Shown here in pieces: positions 304 to 12,600 of a DNA stretch of 64,000 nucleotides (position 1 is the first letter of the stretch; the number at the start of each line of letters is the position of its first letter). Where the stretch lies: NCBI RefSeq assembly GCF_038025025.1, contig NW_027117345.1, forward strand, positions 620,001 to 684,000, written 5' to 3'. A model generated the notes under the pieces. The model searched no databases. It had not been told where the DNA came from and saw nothing but the letters and a program-made list of their open reading frames with translations. The position numbers and the translations under genes are program-made. Source of the stretch: Phyllosticta citribraziliensis (lineage: Eukaryota).

Positions 304-3133
304 AATGAACAGGGAAGGAGCGACAAGAATATGATCAAACTGAAGGAGCCGTAAAGACAGTAGCGATGTATTGGAAAGATTCGGATTCGCGTCGCAAAGG
401 TAAGGTTATTATGCCCAAGGAAAACCGTCCTATGAAATTTGCAAGTGATCTCCTTTAAATTCCCTTGGCGTGAGTCTTAGTAACATTGTTGTGGCTGAAG
501 AGAAGTGTTTCGAGGCTCGCTGCAGCTGTTTTGGCTAAACATGCTACCGAGTGTGGCACGCAGCCGCACTGCCACTGGTACCTTGTCGACGCGATCAAAT
601 GAAGCCTCGCAACGTCTTCCTTAGTTGCTCAGGGACAGCCAGGAGAGCCAAATCGAACCTGTTATTGGAAGCTGGTGGACAACAACACCTGAGACGACAT
701 GAACGACGGACGACTTTCCGTCAAGCATTGTTTCGAGTGCCCTACTCAGGGTTGGTTTCTTCTCAGAATCTATGGACCAACTATGTTCGCCTGTTCTTTT
801 GTTCAGCAAGCATGGATCCTTGTACCACCGTCACATCGGTGTCTGCTACGGCGATCAAACGTGTCCGCCGCAGTCAATCACTGTACTTGGGGCTCAAAAT
901 ACTCCAGTGCCGCATGATCGCCGTTCAGAAGCGCAGCGCTTGTTCTGGACGTTGAATGCTGCGCAGGCAGATGGTCTTTTTCGGTGTTTCTGCAGCTAAA
1001 AGGAGATCATGTACCGCGAAATTGGACCGAGCTTGTCTGTCGTGGGCGAAATGCGATCATTATACGAAAGAGAGGCGGCTCAGACCCTTGAAACTGTGTT
1101 TCCATTTAGCTTACATGCATGATCCTTTCCCATCGTTTCGATCCATGACGTCAGTCGCGAACATGTGTCAATGCGACTCGGCAGTTGGCTGGAGCGAGCT
1201 GTTGATCAAGCCGGACAAGTTGAGGCCGCATGAAGGTGCGGAGGTTAGCAGAACTGTTCGAATTCTGGCAGTGGCTATTTTCGTCATTCAGAGTAACCGT
1301 TCCGGAAGTAAAGTAGATTGCCGGGCGCGTGGGATGGTGCGGAGTATAGAGCGGGTCCAACCGTCTGATGATGGCCGCCTGAACGCTTAACTGGAGTCGA
1401 TCGATGGTAGGCTGATCAAATGCTGAATAACCCCAGTCGACGCCGTAAGTCACTGCCGAGTGTTGAAGCACGAAAGTTCCTCATGTTCCGCCGCCATGTT
1501 GGGTCGTGGAGGGGGGCAAAGAATTGATGACTGGACGAGCATCAGGGGAACCGCCGGAGCTTTATTATTTTTATCAATCATTTTTTGCATAAGACTTACA
1601 AACTGGGGGCGTCTTTGCTTCCCCAACAACCCATTACTACCGTTCAAACTCCAAGCTCCAGCCACAGCCCTGACCGCCTTCCCGGTATAAACTGAACCAC
1701 GGCACTGCTCAATCAAAGAAATCGATAGCCGGTACGGATCGTGATGCGCAATGGAGCGGGCCGCCGAGACCCTGAGATCGTCGCTCGTTCGGTGGTTCCG
1801 ATGACCACTAGAAGCAATCTTAAATCAACGACAATGCTTGCAGGTTGTTGAACGTCATGGATTTCGTTATGAGGAGGTTTTGGCCCCAAAACATTGGACC
1901 ATGGCAGCACGCTGCCAGCCAACAGTTTTATCTGTTGTGTCGGCGACAAGACCTCTTTTCAGGTTCTGTCTGCTCTTTCAATGGCTCGTTCGGACAAGAT
2001 CGCATTGGAAGTCCAGCTTTGGGACTCGTGGGAGGTCTGTGCTGTGGAGATGTTGTAAACACTGGACCCTCTGGAAAACGGCGAGTGCGAGAACTCGGTG
2101 CAATCACGTGACAATACAGTTCATAAATTATACAAACCGTTCTTAAAAAGATGTCGGGCGGTTGGCGCAATGGTAGCGCATTGGTTTTCGGCGTAAGCTT
2201 CATCACCAAAGGTTGTGGGTTCAATCCCCATGCCGCTCGGATCTTTTGTTCTTTTGCAGTTTTGTTTTGGTGATCTTCATGCAGAGGCCGAGGAGCAGCT
2301 GCTGTGCCTCCGGCAGAGTGACGTGTGTGTTTTGGGGGGTGTCAGTGGGTGGGTTGTGGAAGAAGCCGAAGCCTACGTTGCGCAAGATGCCGTGGCGGTG
2401 GGCTGCAGCGGGACGTCACATCAAGACGACTTGGACTCAGTCGATCCGACCGAACGAACCGTCCCCGGCCGTCGACATGTCCCGTGTACATATGGATCAC
2501 TCGGTTGGACGACAAACGCATGCAGAGTGACAGATCCGAACTTTTTCATTTGTTTTCCAAACAGGCTTGGGCCGACGACAGTACTATTCATCGCACAGGC
2601 TCGCCATCGGCCCCTCCTCAGCTCCGCCTCGTTCGCTGGGCAAGACATGAAGCCCACCAACCGCAGAACGAGGCTCCCTACTGGCGTAGGCCTCATGCCG
2701 GCGACGAAGAAAAAACAACGCTGCGCCAGGCAATGAGGAAGGTGGCCAGTCCCGACACACTCGCCTTTCCCTCCGCATCCTCTGCCATCATTGTCGCGTC
2801 TTTTCTCGTACAGGTCATAAGGAAAAATGCAAAAAACAATAGACACAAGAGCAAACGTACTCCGAACAGTCGTGGCGATCCAAGTGTACAACACGTCGCC
2901 CCGTGGAGGACTAAAGATGGTCATCAACGACCCAGGCGACTGTGCAAAAACAGCAAAGTATGAAAACATGATTAGTACGGAAACGCAGGGAATCCAAGGC
3001 CGAAGCCAACCCCTGTCTGAGTGTCCGAAAAGATAATATCCGAAAGAAAGAGAACCGAATGCACCATCCCAGTGAAGGGGGCGCCATAATAATAGTTGAC
3101 TGGCCCATAGGAGGGCTCGTGTCAATGTTGGTA

Positions 3134-3162
3134 GTGGTGGTGGTGGTGGTGGTGGTGGTGGT
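3134..3162. repeat. (GTG)n trinucleotide microsatellite
   Basis: About nine to ten perfect GTG units read directly, about 250 nt downstream of the C2H2 gene stop. Confidence 0.95.
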
Positions 3163-3411
3163 CGCGGCGGCAGTTGGGAGCACTGCTCTCGAGTTTTCGA
3201 CTTCGACATGTTCCGCTGATCGGCCGAATGAGAGGTGCGTCGCGCGCTCAGCCTGAGTCTCGCCTTCGTGGAGATTAGCGCGGCACTCGTTTCGTAATTG
3301 GGATGCATGGTACTTGCAAGTTGTGTGGCCCTGCAGCTCTCAGAAAATTGGCGTGAAAGGCGAACAACGAAGGCGAGGGCACAAGCGCGAATGGGGAAGC
3401 GTGCGGAAACA

Positions 3412-5263
3412 TTACCTTGAATCCGATTTTTCGTGCTTCACCTTGACCTTTGGATTTTGGAGTTTTTCAATCATTTTGTTGGCCTCCTCTGGTGCCTCGT
3501 GCGAGTGCAAAAGATTCTTCAGCTCCGGGAAGCTGACCGAAGCGTTCCGTGCCTTCTTTCCCGACATTGCCTCCTTGAGGTGAGTCTCGTAATGAGCCTT
3601 GCGATTGTCGTTGCGCGAAAATCGCCGTCCGCATCCAGGGACGACGCAAGGGAACGGGCGCTCCTTGCTGTGGGTGTTCTCGTGCCGCTTCAGGTGCTCC
3701 GGGCGCGCAAAAGTCTTGGTGCAGCCTTCGAATCTGCAGCGCTGCTTTTTTGTTTCGCCAGCAGTGCTGCAGTATCTTCCGGACTTGGGGTCTTTCTGGA
3801 TGTCGGCCTGGAAACGAAAGTCGACGGCGCATCCATCGAGGTTGGCAGTAAAGCTATCCATGCGGTTTTCGCAGCGGTGCTTGCGCTTGGTAATGCCGCT
3901 TGGGCCGCTGGGACCAATGCGCCTGTCCTTTTGGCGATGTCGTCGTTGGGGCGAGATGAGCTCGCTGCGACTTCTGTGGTCGAGGTATGCGTCATCGGCC
4001 TCGCGTTTGATGGAAGTGTGCCCGTCCCCCAACTGCCCCCCATATCTTGAGCACTGGGATGTGGACGAACTGTACCCGTCATACGAACCAAAGCTTTCTT
4101 CCAGACTCTGATCTGAGTTCATCTCGGGGTACGTCCGGCTGTCAGCCTCGTGAACAGTGTCTCCTGGATGTACGACACTGTCCTGGAAAATCGGCATTTC
4201 CAGACCGGCTCCTACCTGAGGCCAAGTGTAGTCCATGTTCAGACTTCCACTGTTCATGGGAGGAGCTCCGTATGCTTCGGCGGTCATGCCCTGCAACGAC
4301 AGGGCAGAGGTGGTAGGGTGGTGGGCGGGCCACATTTCAGAGTGAGACTGGAGCTCAGCAGCAGGCAAGAGAGTCCTTGCACCGTTCGGCATGCTGTCGA
4401 AAGACTGATAATCCGTAGGGGCCGGAAGTCCCAGAGTGTCGTTGTCAGAGCCAGTCGGCCGGACGGCCGATGTGTATGGCGTCGCTGGTTCGACCATGAC
4501 CCACCCGGGTTGCCGTCGTTCAGGTTGAATTCCCATTCGTCCAGGTTTGCCATGACCAAAGTCCATGGCAGATGGCCAATGGTCGTGGTTGTTGTACTCG
4601 TCGGCGTCGTGGTCGTTGGCGGTGTGTGCCGACCCATGGTCAAAAGACATGTCGTTTGGACGGACCATCATCCAGTCGCTCTCCCCAACCACTTCCCGGG
4701 ATGTGTGAGGCGTGGGAGGTAGGTTAGAATAATATGCCGAGCTGTTGCTTGAGAAACTGTTGGCGCAAGATGCGGAGGACTGCATGGACGCGATGGAATC
4801 CCTGCGACCTTCGTAGGCCGATGAAGTAGGAGTCAAGTACCCCGAGGGGGTATAGCCTGGAGCTGAATGTGGGTTCATTTCCATTCCGTCTTTGGTGACA
4901 GCCGAAGCCCTGGCCCCCAAGAAGCGATCGCGACTGTTCCGGAAATCTGAGTGTGTGAACGGTCAGCCTGTGTGAAAGGTCAGCCTTGCGGCATCGATGG
5001 ATCGACAAGGCGATGGCACGAACAGAATGGAGATATATGGACAGAGGAATGGTGACCTTCCCGAGCAGAGAGAGCGCAAAGGAACGTATGTGGGAGGGTG
5101 GTAGAAGGAGTGTAAGGACCGAAGAAGGCTGAAGACCACGGGACAGGAGGTCGTTCAAGGGTCCCTTGATGGGGTTTTTGAAGGACACTGACTATTCGGC
5201 ACGGCCGGCAGCAACGCCGTTGCCGGACGTTGAAGTCATAAAGCACAACTCACCGTTGTACAT
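3412..5263 (-). CDS. BrlA-like two-finger C2H2 transcription factor
   Basis: C-terminal fingers [53 protein letters not shown] (about 3580-3738) and a Ser/Pro-rich N-terminus. Long model: exon 5254-5263 (ATG TAC AAC G), intron 4947-5253 (GTGAGT...GCTGAC...CAG), exon 3412-4946, 514 aa. Short model starts at ATG 4884, 490 aa. The C2H2 call is firm; the upstream exon and BrlA relationship are less so. Confidence 0.88.
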
Positions 5264-5271
5264 CGTTGCAT
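4875..5271 (-). promoter_or_regulatory. Putative overlapping uORF (29 aa after splicing) of the BrlA-like gene
   Basis: ATG at 5271, 8 nt upstream of the long-form ATG and out of frame with it. Across intron 4947-5253 it reads [29 protein letters not shown] and stops at TGA 4877-4875, overlapping the in-frame ATG at 4878 (ATGA). Confidence 0.4.
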
Positions 5272-6614
5272 TTGGCGCGCTTCTGTGTACGCGACTTCTG
5301 GGATGTCCTCGGAATGGTGGCCAAATGTCGCGTCTCGACTCGGACAATCTTCACCAGCCTGACAGGCGCGGCGCTGTGCGAGTTTCGACCGGCAGGACGG
5401 GGATCGAGATGGAGGGTGGCGCAAAGTGAAGGCTGGAGGCTTCAAGACGCGACAATCTCCCAACCAGATTTCGGATCGTGAATCAGCTGCAAGGGAGGCC
5501 AGGGCAGTTGAAAAATTGTGGGGTCTAGGTCTTTGTGGGACAGCAGGCCAGCAATTTCGAGTTTTTGAGTGAGAAGAAGCCGAACCTTCTCGATATGAGA
5601 TGGAAAAGAGACTTCTTATGGGGGGCACGCAATAGTGTCTTCGGGCTCACCGACCTGTGCTGTCCAGATAATCGAGGTACCTCAACGGGAGTAGTGCTCG
5701 GTGCTTGCCCCACGGATACGGTAAGTACGAACACCTACGGTTGAATGAACCAACAGAGTAGGTGGATGCAACGTCTGGGTCGTGGAATGATACTACCCTA
5801 ACGTGGGAGGCACAACCATGGAAACAACCTGCGCCGCCACAAACTAAAGTTCCTCGACCGCGGCACCGCCCCGACGTCTGTCCACGCCATCCAACGCTCT
5901 TGCAAGGCCTAGCACTAGGGTTTCTGGGAGCTGGATGCAGCTGAGGTTGTCAGGTTGGACCCTAGACGGGGGCAACCGAGCAGCAAAGCAACCGACTGGC
6001 TGCATATGCAAGCTTTCAATTACTTGCAGCATCAACCAACGCTCGACGAAACAGAGCAGGCGGCCGTCAAAGCTTGCCATTCCTGACGCGCACAGTCGAC
6101 ACTTGCAGTTTTCGGAACGCAGATCAGGCCTGGAATGGCACCCTCCTCTTTAAACGGTGCCAAGGCTGTGTTGTGTGCCGCTGCAGCCCTTTGGGATGCA
6201 AAATCAGCCAATCGATGGCCTGCTCAGGACGTCCAGAGCTTGATCGAACTTGGCCCAAAGCGGCACCAGATAGATGCACGATTGGGTACCGCCAGCGCGG
6301 ATGGGCGAAGGATGATGAGGTCGACAGACTCGAAGGCGACGTGACCAGGTCTGGAGGCTTGGCTGAGGCTCGGGCTGATGGCAATAATGGCCGACGAGAC
6401 GGCGCAAGAGTCAACCAGGCCGGCCGTGTGAAGGTTTTGAAGAGAGGCTGGCCGGATTTGGCCTGCGGCGGTGACACGACATGGATGAGATGCAGGATTG
6501 AAATTGCTTTGGCCCGATGAGAATCGTAATCCAACCGGCTCCAGGTCGGTAGATTCGGCAGTCATTCAGCAGGTTGTGTTTCAAGCGCTGCGGGAGCACA
6601 AATGTTCCGGAATG
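5024..6614. promoter_or_regulatory. Cluster of CATTCY (AbaA/TEA-type) sites
   Basis: CATTCY on either strand at 5024, 5046, 5311, 5784, 6078, 6132 and 6609. Confidence 0.4.
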
Positions 6615-9600
6615 CATGATCTGACGGCGGCTTTTCCTTCTGCCTGACCTGGAGTCGCTGCTGTGGGTGCCCGCGGCCGGTGGGTTGCTCGCCAGAAGAG
6701 CAGAGGTGAGCAGTCACAAGCAAAGCGTCGGGTTGGACAAATTTCCCGGCCGGCGAGCGGCGTCGATTAGACTTTGGAGAGCGAGAGGTGGTGTTGGAGG
6801 TGGTGGTGTTGTAGTAGTCGGGGCGCCCTGCATGCGGCGCAGCGATGGACCGGGAAGCCGAGCGAGCGCCGGCAGGCCGCAGATGTCAACCTAACCTTCT
6901 CCTACTCTCCACCCAAACCTCTTCGGTTCTCTCCACGCCGTCGCCATCTCACACCACGGTTGCCGGCGTCCTTCACGTTCTCCAGTCGTCTGCCCACTTG
7001 AACCTCCCGGGCCCCCAGCCCCAGTGCCTCGCCTACCGCACTCTGGCTCTTCGCGACCTTGACGCGTCTTCCATGGCTTGCATCTCGACCTGCCGCCGCA
7101 TGTGCCACCAGACGCGCTCCAAACATGAGCCGAGGAGGAGGCTGGCAAAGCCCTGCCCTGCCCTGCCAGGGCGGCGCGTCTGTGGCCACATTGGGTCCAG
7201 CCGCTCTTGACCTCTTCGGGTGATCGACTGAGCTTGACGCCGTGTCGTGGGGGTCCAAAGCAACCCTCCTCATCCTTCTCTTCCTCCTCCTGCATGCTGC
7301 TCAGGCACCTGAGTCGGTCGCCCATCTTGAAACGCCTTGGACGGTGGCACAAGAGCCAGACTGGCCAAAGTTTGATAAGACCAAGGCCCACTGTTGCCGC
7401 CATCTAGCCCACGGCGATCGGATCGGGATGGCCTTCACTTCGAACCCGATAGTCAGCCAGACAGCCGACAGCTTCATGCGCACTGTTTCTGCCGTAGCAA
7501 CCACGCTTGGCTGCGCCAACAACCCCCATTGGTCCATTGGTGACACCCATTTTGACCCGGATGACTTGCCGTCACTGTTCCATTGACGACCGAGTCCTGC
7601 ACCACCGTCTCTCTCGAATTTGCTTCATGCCATCCACGCTGAAAGTGATCGTCAGCAATGTTCAACTGTCATGCCATTGGGGCGAATGGCGTCACTAGCG
7701 GCATGTGGCTCCGCGACTCCGCTAAACAGCCCTACCCGGAGCCGTCTCTGGATGAGCCCGTAGCATTACCCTACGTCAGATTGTGGTTTTCCAAGGAAAC
7801 TCCAAGGAGCGGGCAGACACCTGAAAAATTGCGACAAAGACACATCCAAGTGTGTTACGCAAGAATATTGCGCTAGACCGGCCGCAAATCGACGCCAGAC
7901 TTGATTCTGATCATGCACGTAAGTGGGGTCCGCCGTCGATGATGCCCCGTGCGCTGGTGGTCTCATTGTCCTGTCACTCTCAACGTGGGCGTGGTCATTT
8001 CTGTGCAAAATTTGCAAGTCACGTCGAGTTCCTTTTCCATTCTTGCCGTCATGCCATTCTGCACGATGGAGCAATATCGGACGGCATGTACGCGCCGTGC
8101 AGCGCCTGCGGACCCTGGCCATGATCTTGCGGCTCTGGTGTTTTGGACAAAACACATCCATCTGCACCAGTCTTGCGCAATTGTGGGGAGCTGGTGCAGC
8201 TTGGAGAAGATTGGTATGGGCCTTGCAGTTCGCGCTGGTCCCCGGCCCCCTTGTCCCTGCTACAGATCCCCCTTGTTACGGAAACCTGCATGCTTAGCCA
8301 TGGTAGATCCTAGAATCGACACCAGACTGCCAGGATACAATTCGGTTAGCCACAGACTACTGCGCACATCAAACTCACCGCAACTTCAACGGCTTCTTCT
8401 CGTCCAGTCGAAGTGACATACAGCTGAGCACAGATGAACAGGCAGGACCCTGAAAACGGAGCAGAGTGCACAGTCCAAGAGGCTACTTTTTGGAGGCCCA
8501 CATATCTAGCCTTACTAGCCTTTTTTTCCCGGATATCCTAATGGATCGTCGACCATTGAAGCACGCTGACCAAGTTGGCAATTTGTATCCCTGCAAACGG
8601 CGAACCGCATTTCAAACTCCACTTCGACCTGCGGTAACACCAACCGCCAACTCTCCTAGACCGCCTTTTGCTCTTTGCAAGAGCCAACTCGAAAACATGA
8701 GCAAATTTATTGGCTACAGGCAAGTCGTCTTTGACGGTCATGTGTTCGGAGGACAAGAAATTTGTCGCGCCCAGACCTGTGTATCCTCGTGTCGAAAGAT
8801 TTTTGCCAAGTATCAAGCTTCATGTTCGAGCTGCTCAACAAGTTTTCAAGCCATCCGCTAGAATCTTGGCGTATTACGCCATATTGAGTATCGAGACGGC
8901 AAGTCCCATCGCTGGGGCATTGATTTAAGCCGTTGAACAGACCAGAATCGCGCAGAGCTCGATTCCTTTGGCTCTGACGCTAGGCCAGATAGTGTCCTAC
9001 TAGCACGGGCTCGCTATTCTCGATGAAGAGGTTCCGCATCCGGCCCAAACAGATTCGAGAGACCTTTTACCAGGAGAAATTCTCAGCATGGCTTGCGCAT
9101 GGCGTCGTGGGCGCTCTGGATCTCGGCCCGCATACCTCGGCCTCTCCGAGTTCAGCCCTTCTGCCTCATCCGAGAAGCGCCTGAAGGATCTAGCCGTCGG
9201 GGAGATAGCCAGACAGAGACTTGGTCCCGCTCAGCCTGACAACGAAGGATCAAATATCTGCCGCTGGTGCGTGGTGCGATCGAAACCTGTCGAGAGGGAC
9301 TCAAGATTCGTCTGGGGCTCGAGGACAACGCAGACAATGCCTTCTCACATGCGATGAGTCTTTCTAAGATTGGGACTGCGCTCTAGCGCGCCAGTATAGA
9401 CTAATGACAAATTCGTCTCAGAATGAACGTGACTCGCTGTGTGGATGGACGGCTTTGATCTCGCCGTGACTCCCACTGGTTGCGCCTGAGTTTTCTTTCC
9501 ATGTAAGTGCACCTCATGATCGCTGGCTCGACCGCGTCTGCTCTCGGGAGAAGCTTTGAAGAGCGAAGAATTTCTGGGCGAGGGCATGTCGAGTTGTCGT

Positions 9601-12600
9601 TGCAAGCCTTCTTGGCGTGCCCGGCTATTTATCACGCGGAACAATTTTGCATCTGATTCAGCAGCGGTGGTTGAGGCCCCGACTTGAGCCTTTTCCTGCT
9701 GACATTGCGAACTTGACTTGCTCGTGCATCCGAGTGTAAACCTACTCTACATAGCCACCTGACCGCCGACCAGGAACGTTCCATGGGTATTCGACGCGAA
9801 TTCCGCGCAAATCGTACGATTTTCCAGTGTGTGTCCCTAGCTTCGGGCGTTGCGCACCATTGTCGCGGCTGCTTTCCGCAAACATTTGGGTACGATTACA
9901 TAGCGTTTCCAAAATCGCTTCTCCCTCCCTCGTCTCCGACTCACCGAAACAGTTCAAGACATGTGTCAATGAATTGGGCAAACTTACACGGAATGGAAGA
10001 GTGAAGAGGATTGAACAAGGTTTTCTTGATCTCAACCGAACATCGATTTTGGAGATTGAGCACTCTTGCCACGTTTCTAGCACGTTTGTTGGTCCTGGAT
10101 GAAAAGCCGAGTGAGGAACAATCTCGATGACACTGACAAGATCGCCACGTTTCTTGCCCCCTTGTGATGACTTTCGAGCGTCAACACCCCGGATTCTGAG
10201 TCGAAGCAGGGAAGTCTGTCATCTTGTGAGAAGTTTCGCTTTTTATCGTCTTGCTGCAGTCGCAAGTGAGAGCAGTCCGATTTGCTGGAATTTCATCATC
10301 CAAAGTTTCAAAAGATCGCTATATCGCACGGTAAGTTTGGACCTGACGATGTGCAGTAAGACGGAAGAATCACTCTGTTTCGACACCATTGACTTGCTTC
10401 AAGAAGATGGCGCGGGCGCGCGGTTGCCGACGATGGATGTTTTGCAACTGTCTGTCGGTCACTGTCACTGGAATGCAAAGAACTTCCCACTCGCTGGACA
10501 ATGTCTTGCCCATCAAGTCGAAAGAATCTGCCGATTTCGACGGCGCATTCCAGTACTTCAAGTGGAGGAATTCCCAAAAGCCACGGCAGTTTGCGCCTTC
10601 GTAGAAAGTATTGCTTTGGTCCACTCAATCCCAGAAGCCTTCGTGCAGAACAAACCGAGCGAGATTCCCTTCCCGTCCCATCGTGTCTAGTCCATCTAGT
10701 GTCTGCCCTATTTTCCGAATCCGTCGACGAATAGGAAACTCAACTACCACTACTAGGGTGATGATCCTGGCTGGCGAGAAAAAGGACGACACAAACACCT
10801 CCACACCATCTGGGCGAATGTCGACTCACCCTGCCAACTCAATCGACCCCTCCTCGCCTCGCGTAGTCTCGCCTTGCACACCATCACCACCTCCGCCACG
10901 AGCAGCACCCTTTTTCTCTCCCCTTCCCTTTTGTGAGCCCGCTACTACACCACCACGCGCCTACCACGCGGGCGACGTTATTGTTCCTGTTCTTGTACTT
11001 GCGCCTGTCCCCGTCTGCCCCTGCCAGCCCCTGCCCTTCTTCTGCAAACGTGCGTATGTCCCTTTTGTTCTCCTTTCCTCCCTCCCCTGCCCTATAGTCC
11101 AACTAGTCAGCCGTCAAGCGCACCTCCACGCGCGATGATGCGCGCACGTTTGCCTTGGCGATGTGGTGCACTCAGACCCTCATCACCCCTTGCCCCCTTT
11201 CCGGTCTGCCACCTGCCAATTGACACCTGGGGCGAGCTGCAAAGGAGAGAGAGATAGAGAAGAAGGAGGTGGCTGCCACGCGCTCTCCACGTGTGTTAGC
11301 TGTCTAAGAAGGTACTCAGTTGATGCTGTTCCTGAGGACGTCATTCGATCGCAACCCCTCTTTAGATCGATCGTCTAGGCAATAGGGGTCTATTAGCTAT
11401 ACCTTGCCGCCTGCTTGTCCAGGTACTTGACTACTGCTCCACTCCCCCCTTGGCCTCGCTTGCCTTCGCAGGGTTGTCGGAAAAAATGACAGCGTCTCTC
11501 CGAACCACACCTTTCGGCCCCTATCTTTTAAATAGACTGTCTCCTCCCAGTCCCTCCCGCATGGGTCTCCTGCCGACGAGATGAGCATTGATATGGTACC
11601 AGTGATGCAAAACCCAAGCCTGTGGACGTTGCCGTCGTATAGACAGGGAAAATCTATACGTGCGACGGTGGCGGCGAGCTTGAATCGACGACGGATGCAC
11701 AGAGCTGCTACGAATCGCCGTATGGCAGGCATAACACATGAAGCCGAGAAGGCCTCGAGATGGAAAGTCGAAGTCATTGAACCGCAGCAAGTTGTCATTA
11801 CTGGGCGAGCACTGAGGGTGGCATCACACATGGCGTCTTTGTTATCACTGTCCTCTTGCTTTCAGATTGGAGGGCAAAAGAAAGCCTGTCGGTTCTGACG
11901 CTGGATCTGAATCGGTGGACGATGCCAAAGGAAGACTTCTCCCTGAAGTGTACATTTTTCACCGCCCAATGAACAACCCCGGACCGCGTACACTGTAACA
12001 TACACTTTCCACCACCCGCTACTGGCAAAAATCGCAGACACTCTCTTCTTGACCGATTCAGTCCAATTAAGCGGTGGCGGCAGCGGCGGCAGCAGCCAAC
12101 GTCCCGCACTTACTTGCGCAAGGGGTGACGCTGCGAGGTGGGCACTACAGCGACCCTCCCAACCAACCAACCACAACCAAAGCCGTTGGCTGGACCAGAA
12201 GATAGGGAAAACGAAAGAGGACAACAGCAGGCGGGAGAAAATGCACGCCGCATCAACGACACAGCAGCAGCAGGAGCGGCGGCGTCAACGCGCGGCATTC
12301 CGCGCACGACAGCAGCATCTATGGGCGCGCGAACCAGCACGGCGTCTGCCGGCCGACTGCCCATTGACGGACACCCATGTCGGTGTACAGGTGGATGGAG
12401 TGACGGCAAGGTGGCGGCGGTCGTGGTAGTGGTGGTGGTGGGGAAAAGGGGAGGGGAGGGGAGGGGAGGACAATCCTTCCGGGGAGCCGGGAGGGACGGG
12501 ACTTCGCTCCATGTCGTCAAAGGTGTGACAAGAACGGCTTCGAGCAGCGCAGTGTGGTGTGGTGTGGTGTAGAGGAGGATGGCAGGAAGCGGAACAGGCC

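Follow-up and report, generated by a model that had tools for sequence, protein, structure and literature searches.

Two nested transcripts are described for brlA of Aspergillus nidulans: brlA-beta starts upstream, is spliced, has a short upstream ORF and gives a protein 23 residues longer, and brlA-alpha starts inside the brlA-beta intron (10.1101/627414; PMC3563288; PMC8779605; PMC12810187). An earlier note, made from the sequence of a 64-kb stretch of Phyllosticta citribraziliensis DNA (the whole of which we call the window, and to which all positions refer), proposed the same design for a BrlA-like gene on its minus strand. In that model a beta-like transcript joins a start-codon micro-exon to the gene at 5254|4946 and adds 24 residues, and an alpha-like transcript starts inside the 307-nt intron so defined. 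We asked which messages the locus makes, where translation begins in them, and whether a second, longer leader is likely.

The gene and its zinc fingers

The main ORF encodes a protein of 490 aa, and an entry in the ESM Atlas is the same protein letter for letter.

3412 to 4884, minus strand: main ORF, 490 aa, from ATG 4884 to TAA 3414-3412 (ORF translation; identical ESM Atlas sequence)
3577 to 3747, minus strand: two C2H2 zinc fingers, residues about 380-436 (Pfam and PDB matches)

The Pfam family zf-C2H2 (PF00096) matched in two stretches (E = 1.9e-08, the best at residues 382-405), and two- and three-finger domains in the PDB (ZNF410, KLF4/5, WT1, YY1) matched residues about 376-438 (108 distinct sequences at E ≤ 0.01). 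One feature by which we tested the BrlA label, a pair of C2H2 fingers near the C-terminus, was found by both. Judged by its predicted product, the locus encodes a transcription factor with two C2H2 fingers, from a family widespread in filamentous ascomycetes; ORF, Pfam and PDB matches agree that the gene of the earlier note, with its C-terminal two-finger factor, is real.

Relatives and the BrlA name

A first protein search gave 51 matches at E ≤ 1e-3 among 3039 candidates. The nearest relative (P0002) is 72% identical and unnamed, four further unnamed relatives (P0003-P0006) are 51-53% identical, and three named ones, from Diplodia seriata, Diplodia corticola and Neofusicoccum ribis, are 49-51% identical. 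More distant full-length relatives occur in Cenococcum and Bogoriella. Going by the named records, the organism is a Dothideomycete closest to Botryosphaeriales. A profile search of 1.84 billion representatives returned 43,861 matches at E ≤ 1e-3, mostly many-finger proteins, and even the 256 proteins at E ≤ 1e-30 were a mixture of full-length relatives and many-finger proteins. From the best 150 listed of the 43,861 we took for alignment the 35 relatives (251-588 aa) with one or two matching stretches, most of them covering the bulk of the profile. The alignment of 42 sequences (41 relatives) has 17 invariant columns, and its common blocks are an N-terminal LTP...RRDS, a central TGGK.VKKERR and the two C-terminal fingers. 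Likeness to the ascomycete C2H2 family was thus found over the full length (N-terminal block, central block and fingers), and the predicted protein is a member of this broad family.

Whether it should be called BrlA is a separate matter. The UniRef label on both Diplodia proteins begins "C2H2 type master regulator of conidiop", which we complete as conidiophore development; in the ESM Atlas the protein adjoins clusters automatically named brlA (score 0.98, 206/256 features), and "master regulator of conidiophore development brlA" is the automatic name of the nearest named relatives and of the Atlas clusters. Aspergillus BrlA was absent from the 51 matches of the first search, from the 56 matches retrieved with a profile of 42 family members and from the best 150 of the 43,861, where it may be masked by the word filter or by the sheer number of finger proteins; the profile of 42 likewise retrieved no named Hypocreales BrlA among its 56 matches. 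The Aspergillus proteins among the matches are SteA. Published surveys place BrlA in Eurotiomycetes only (PMC6231087; 10.1101/627414), an account of Botryosphaeria dothidea and B. kuwatsukai reports no unambiguous brlA (PMC6317582), and a Hypocrealean "BrlA" is called from similarity to A. nidulans in the fingers only, with 36.6% identity over 20% coverage (PMC9604561). "BrlA-like" is a label that comes from automatic names and finger similarity, and orthology is unproven. What stands of the earlier name is the pair of C-terminal fingers and the automatic brlA labels; Aspergillus BrlA itself is not among the matches.

A candidate start-codon micro-exon

The elements on which the two-transcript model was built lie upstream of ATG 4884.

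5254 to 5263, minus strand: candidate start-codon micro-exon ATG TAC AAC G, with A at -3 (sequence; confirmed by no contig)
5248 to 5253, minus strand: candidate donor GTGAGT (sequence; a contig of run X7, described below, is unspliced across it)
4947 to 4948, minus strand: acceptor AG of the earlier note, in ...CTCAG ending at 4947 (sequence)

All of them are present as sequence, the in-phase acceptor included. When 5254 is joined to 4946 in silico, the frame is kept and 24 residues are placed ahead of ATG 4884, for a product of 514 aa. The other properties claimed for the interval were also verified: it is 307 nt long, its sense strand is 62.5% pyrimidine (against 48% in the coding region), and ATATAT lies at 5038-5033 on the minus strand. 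GCTGAC is present twice, at 4984-4979 and 4966-4961, and in unspliced form the frame above the acceptor is shut by TGA 4965-4963.

As a measure of chance, this is the sole arrangement of ATG, phase-1 exon end, stop-free frame and GTRAGT donor within 1 kb upstream of acceptor 4947. At least one such arrangement arose in 3.1% of 2000 dinucleotide-preserving shuffles of 5400-4969, and with a looser GTRHGT donor in 12.5% of 2000 shuffles. The micro-exon arrangement looks unusual, yet alone it is not compelling.

Splice joints in RNA-like contigs

Nine runs matched the locus, and contigs of four of them (X1, X9, X7 and X8, with word shares of 0.85, 0.45, 0.08 and 0.05) were aligned to 2900-6300 at 85% likeness. 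X7 and X8 are recorded as RNA, the RNA status of X1 is a guess of the tool, and X9 is DNA-like. Such contigs show cover and bridging, never starts, ends, strand or level. X1 comes from the same organism, with 22 of its 23 contigs at least 99% alike and no listed differences, and X7 and X8 come from a related fungus, about 92-93% alike. All three joints in X1 contigs (4966 to 5023, 3262 to 3415 and 3261 to 3316) have GT-AG or GC-AG ends on the gene strand, which would not be expected from DNA, and we therefore took X1 as RNA-like.

Two of the joints concern the 3' end of the gene.

3264 to 3415, minus strand: alternative intron of 152 nt, with a GTAATG donor that overlaps the stop codon (X1 joint 3262 to 3415; an X8 contig is also joined at 3415)
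3264 to 3317, minus strand: alternative 54-nt GC-AG intron, GCAAGT...AAG, in the 3' untranslated region (X1 joint 3261 to 3316, shifted by 2)

The two introns have one common acceptor. Removal of the longer one gives a product of 494 aa, and removal of the shorter one keeps the 490-aa ORF intact; the depths of the two forms are 2769 and 1324, each being one value for a whole contig. The splice at 3415 was also found in X7 and X8, and since both show it we take these runs as spliced RNA of the related fungus. X1 contigs run far past the stop codon, one of them about 327 nt beyond 2900, which points to a long 3' untranslated region. Within it a simple repeat at 3120-3176 reads as a proline run in a mechanical ORF at 2421-3308, which is probably not a gene.

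The third joint lies in the leader, and it differs from the one that had been proposed.

4968 to 5023, minus strand: 56-nt leader intron, GTTCGT...GCTGAC...CACAG (X1 joint 4966 to 5023; ends checked in the sequence)
5024 to 5053, minus strand: part of the leader exon, inside the proposed 307-nt intron (X1 contig, 30-31 letters beyond the joint)

The X1 contig with this joint continues through the coding region down to 3889, and GCTGAC lies 12 nt ahead of the AG of the intron. Exon 2 starts at 4967, with TGA 4965-4963 in the coding frame. Because of this stop, a message of the X1 type cannot carry the 24-residue extension and must start at ATG 4884. Taken from 5083, the leader (5083..5024 joined to 4967..4885) contains no ATG, which likewise makes ATG 4884 the start codon of the X1 message.

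The junction 5254|4946 was in no contig of the four runs, X1 having no cover over about 5054-5273, micro-exon included. That gap is neutral as evidence, as are the lack of X1 contigs inside the small intron, of X8 contigs above 4947, and of X7 contigs over 4947-5098 or above 5371. An X7 RNA contig covering 5099-5371 runs unspliced through the proposed donor. Contigs of X7 and X8 stop at 4946 and 4947 without loose letters, and X9 continues; since X7 and X8 come from one study, these ends are less than a weak hint. Depth was 5810 for the coding contig and 396 for the upstream contig, again one value per contig. ATATAT at 5038-5033 was considered as a TATA box of the X1 message and rejected, since it is transcribed within the leader exon.

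The splice 5254|4946 thus failed to appear in use, and the X1 message uses 5023-4968. The claim that a message starts inside the 307-nt intron fares better: 5024-5053 is exonic, as that claim would have it, but contigs show no start, and the longer spliced transcript to which the term intron refers was unseen in the four runs. The extra 24-residue start is a well-formed possibility, and unconfirmed.

A tandem duplication supplies the acceptor

The acceptor used in X1 sits 21 nt upstream of the one in the earlier note, at a short repeat.

4952 to 4985, no strand assigned: 17-nt tandem duplication, two copies (4952-4968 and 4969-4985), 94% alike (repeat analysis)

Each copy carries a GCTGAC branch motif, and the AG used as acceptor in X1 is made where the two copies meet (A 4969, G 4968). 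In the relative represented by X9, one contig lacks exactly 17 nt at 4952. Without the duplication the sole acceptor is 4947, and in genomes of that kind the small intron probably has AG 4947..4948 as its ancestral acceptor. The read-through models of five relatives, which are protein models only, read S-D or S-G in the acceptor region before the conserved block, as TCAG would.

The consequence for the micro-exon is direct. No upstream exon spliced to 4967 can extend the protein, because TGA 4965-4963 lies in the coding frame; the micro-exon spliced there gives an ORF of 4 codons ending at that TGA, and left unspliced it opens an ORF of 23 codons. The 24 residues would be added only by splicing to the older acceptor at 4947.

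The upstream region and the question of a second start

Upstream of the micro-exon the X1 contigs resume, over a region whose two strands differ in composition.

5274 to 6300, no strand assigned: upstream region under one 1520-nt X1 contig, which runs to about 6793 (contig cover)
5272 to 5819, minus strand: 548 nt free of ATG, the longest such minus-strand run in the 64-kb window (ATG scan)
5041 to 5160, minus strand: block rich in pyrimidines, C+T 68-75% per 40 nt, which overlaps the leader exon and extends upstream of it (composition)

No long ORF was found in 5274-6793, and no Rfam match in 5274-7600 or 2400-8000. Over 5274-6793 the minus strand has 8 ATGs against 19.1 expected (P ≤ 0.001, 1000 shuffles), and the plus strand 29. 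Among all windows of 1520 nt, the minus-strand ATG ratio is lowest in the one starting at 5301 (0.46, with the 5th percentile at 0.63); others reach 0.50-0.55, and the depletion is extreme, not unique. The first ATGs after the ATG-free stretch are 5271, with C at -3 and an ORF of 11 codons, and 5263, with A at -3. A long leader of a translated message, on the gene strand, would be expected to show depletion of this kind.

Our preferred explanation begins with the observed message, in which 5023-4968 is spliced out and ATG 4884 starts a protein of 490 aa, or of 494 aa with the stop-codon intron removed. The start of this message would lie shortly upstream of 5053, within the pyrimidine-rich block, and its leader would be free of ATG; we read the block as a CT-type core promoter, as known from filamentous-fungal promoters in general. 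A second, longer minus-strand leader would, at about even odds, come from upstream and pass through the ATG-depleted 5819-5272, for which the X1 contig over 5274-6300 and beyond and the X7 RNA contig over 5099-5371 both speak. The candidate upstream ORFs predicted in this leader open at ATG 5271 (11 codons) and at ATG 5263, where the ORF would mostly be short (4 codons with the X1 acceptor, 23 unspliced) and would tune translation, not extend the protein. Against this explanation, we infer both that the message begins in the pyrimidine block and which strand the upstream RNA comes from, the RNA status of X1 is a guess, and the M-Y-H-A start of the relative P0006, discussed below, speaks for a similar exon being used as coding sequence, in that species at any rate. 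Taken as a whole (the 56-nt leader intron, the start at ATG 4884 and a possible second, longer leader), we give the explanation an equal chance of being right or wrong; a second start upstream is in itself plausible, at roughly even odds.

The same RNA could instead come from a single bidirectional promoter, with the micro-exon a product of chance and the RNA from 5274 onward a divergent, non-coding plus-strand transcript. The X1 upstream contig stops at exactly 5274 without loose letters, and the plus strand has a pyrimidine-purine step there (T|G) and CATAAAG at 5237-5243, 37-31 nt upstream, so that this contig end fits a divergent plus-strand start equally well. The dearth of notable ORFs and of Rfam families in 5274-7600 agrees with such a transcript, and 29 plus-strand ATGs would be tolerable in an untranslated RNA. 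However, a single promoter leaves the depletion of ATGs on the minus strand specifically without explanation, the X7 RNA contig at 5099-5371 extends below the supposed plus-strand start, and chance must also account for the micro-exon arrangement (p about 0.03) and for a relative whose protein starts M-Y. We consider a single promoter possible, if doubtful.

The region has two other features. CATTCY motifs, which we take, as a lead only, to be sites of AbaA/TEA factors, number 8 in 4882-6614 against about 2.1 expected, with 6 on the gene strand and two within the leader exon (5024-5029 and 5046-5051); the cluster is the densest in the 64 kb, a count of 8 being reached by 0.3% of windows. In addition, 5200-10500 holds more than 5 kb of upstream sequence without a long ORF, the longest stop-to-stop frame being 191 aa, and large gene-poor regions often adjoin developmental regulators. 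With its long ORF-free upstream region, ATG-poor strand and CATTCY cluster, the locus looks like a developmental gene under heavy regulation. An account of Botryosphaeria reports the abaA orthologue as missing there (PMC6317582).

N-termini of the relatives

Five protein models (P0002, P0003, P0004, P0006 and P0008) reach above the internal Met, and all five keep the frame open from acceptor to internal Met with in-frame length differences, in favour of the two-transcript model of the earlier note. Four of the five, however, read through the acceptor region (S-D or S-G) and a K/E-A-D triplet, as GCTGAC gives in that frame, which identifies these four as ORFs called on DNA that had not been spliced; the calling itself selects for frames that stay open. 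Compared with the window by eye and uncounted, the non-coding sequence ahead of the acceptor, as the P0002 ORF reads it, looked about as conserved as the extension, so conservation of the extension does not show that it is coding.

P0006 differs from the others. It starts M-Y-H-A and then matches the extension; it is 82% identical to P0003 overall, and the alignment begins at residue 4 against residue 12, which is the acceptor position. At 2175 nt, its longest contig is roughly as long as a message. P0006 could derive from a spliced message that includes a micro-exon homologue, and its first four codons could equally be the pyrimidine-rich 3' end of an unspliced intron.

Homology of the extension to the true N-termini of distant relatives, suggested by eye from "LK[VIL]EG" and "LRIDT", received no support: with an HMM of 29 distant N-termini, six extension-bearing sequences scored slightly lower with the extension than without it (60.0 vs 60.7; 44.5 vs 47.1). 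Searching with the first 160 residues of P0006 brought back the same 9 proteins and no others. Two metagenome loci (L001 and L002) are relatives at 30-32% and are uninformative on the micro-exon; in L002 the ORF is unbroken and has its own Met. Separately, R-R-x-S is conserved before the internal Met in P0003, P0004, P0006 and P0008 (Botryosphaeriaceae-like) and is lacking in the window and P0002; it has the form of a basic-kinase site.

On balance we find the beta- and alpha-like pair of the earlier note unlikely. It draws on an arrangement that is the only one within 1 kb and rare in shuffles, on ATG 5263 with its A at -3 coming after a 548-nt ATG-free stretch, on 5024-5053 being exonic in another message, on P0006, and on the precedent of the 23 residues added by A. 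nidulans brlA-beta (PMC3563288; 10.1101/627414). Set against this are the lack of the junction in any contig of the four runs, the X7 read-through of the donor, an observed acceptor (4968) that turns the micro-exon into a 4-codon ORF, the selection of the relatives' open frames, the distant N-termini profile that gains nothing from the extension, and the second reading of the first codons of P0006. In Phyllosticta citribraziliensis itself a 24-residue isoform is likewise improbable.

Comparison with known systems

The locus can be set beside three kinds of known arrangement. Like A. nidulans brlA, it encodes a C-terminal two-finger C2H2 factor, has a candidate upstream ATG exon (24 residues here, 23 in BrlA-beta) and sequence inside the candidate long intron that is exonic in another message, and might have short upstream ORFs in a long leader, which are predicted here. 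Unlike it, the junction of beta type is unseen, and the locus has a 56-nt leader intron of its own whose acceptor blocks the extension. For Metarhizium robertsii BrlA, two starts mapped by RACE are described that share the same ORF; the longer leader exceeds the other by 835 nt and holds several predicted upstream ORFs (PMC8779605). With two transcripts that differ in leader length, it is the closest match to our preferred reading, although there the starts come from RACE, and here the second one is inferred from the scarcity of ATGs and from contig cover. The name "BrlA" in M. robertsii also derives from finger-only similarity, and we liken the two by transcript layout, not family membership. 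Finally, the leader intron is like ordinary fungal leader introns in being short (56 nt), in its CTGAC-type branch motif near the AG and in its use of the first AG after the branch, and unlike them in that the AG is new, from the junction of a 17-nt duplication, and a stop is placed in the frame of the upstream start. If the preferred reading is right, the locus would resemble A. nidulans brlA in sequence potential and Metarhizium robertsii in what is made.

The observation behind the earlier note was thus confirmed as sequence, and its interpretation is partly supported. The smaller intron of the X1 message, with its duplication-born acceptor, excludes the extension. That the nested two-promoter design of brlA, with its start-codon micro-exon, long intron and internal promoter, was kept in a Dothideomycete lineage said to lack brlA, and that the 17-nt duplication here turned the upstream start codon into a 4-codon upstream ORF, strikes us as a long shot. 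If it were true, the nested design would predate Eurotiomycetes and belong to the wider C2H2 family, and the duplication would be recent and a natural switch from control by protein isoform to translational control.

For annotation, RNA-like evidence is enough to place the start codon at 4884, the leader intron and the two alternative 3' introns. The 24-residue extension is tempting, but junction reads are needed before it is annotated. Should the second upstream start prove true, dual-transcript control like that of brlA would reach into the Dothideomycetes, and the age of the dual-transcript design would become directly testable.
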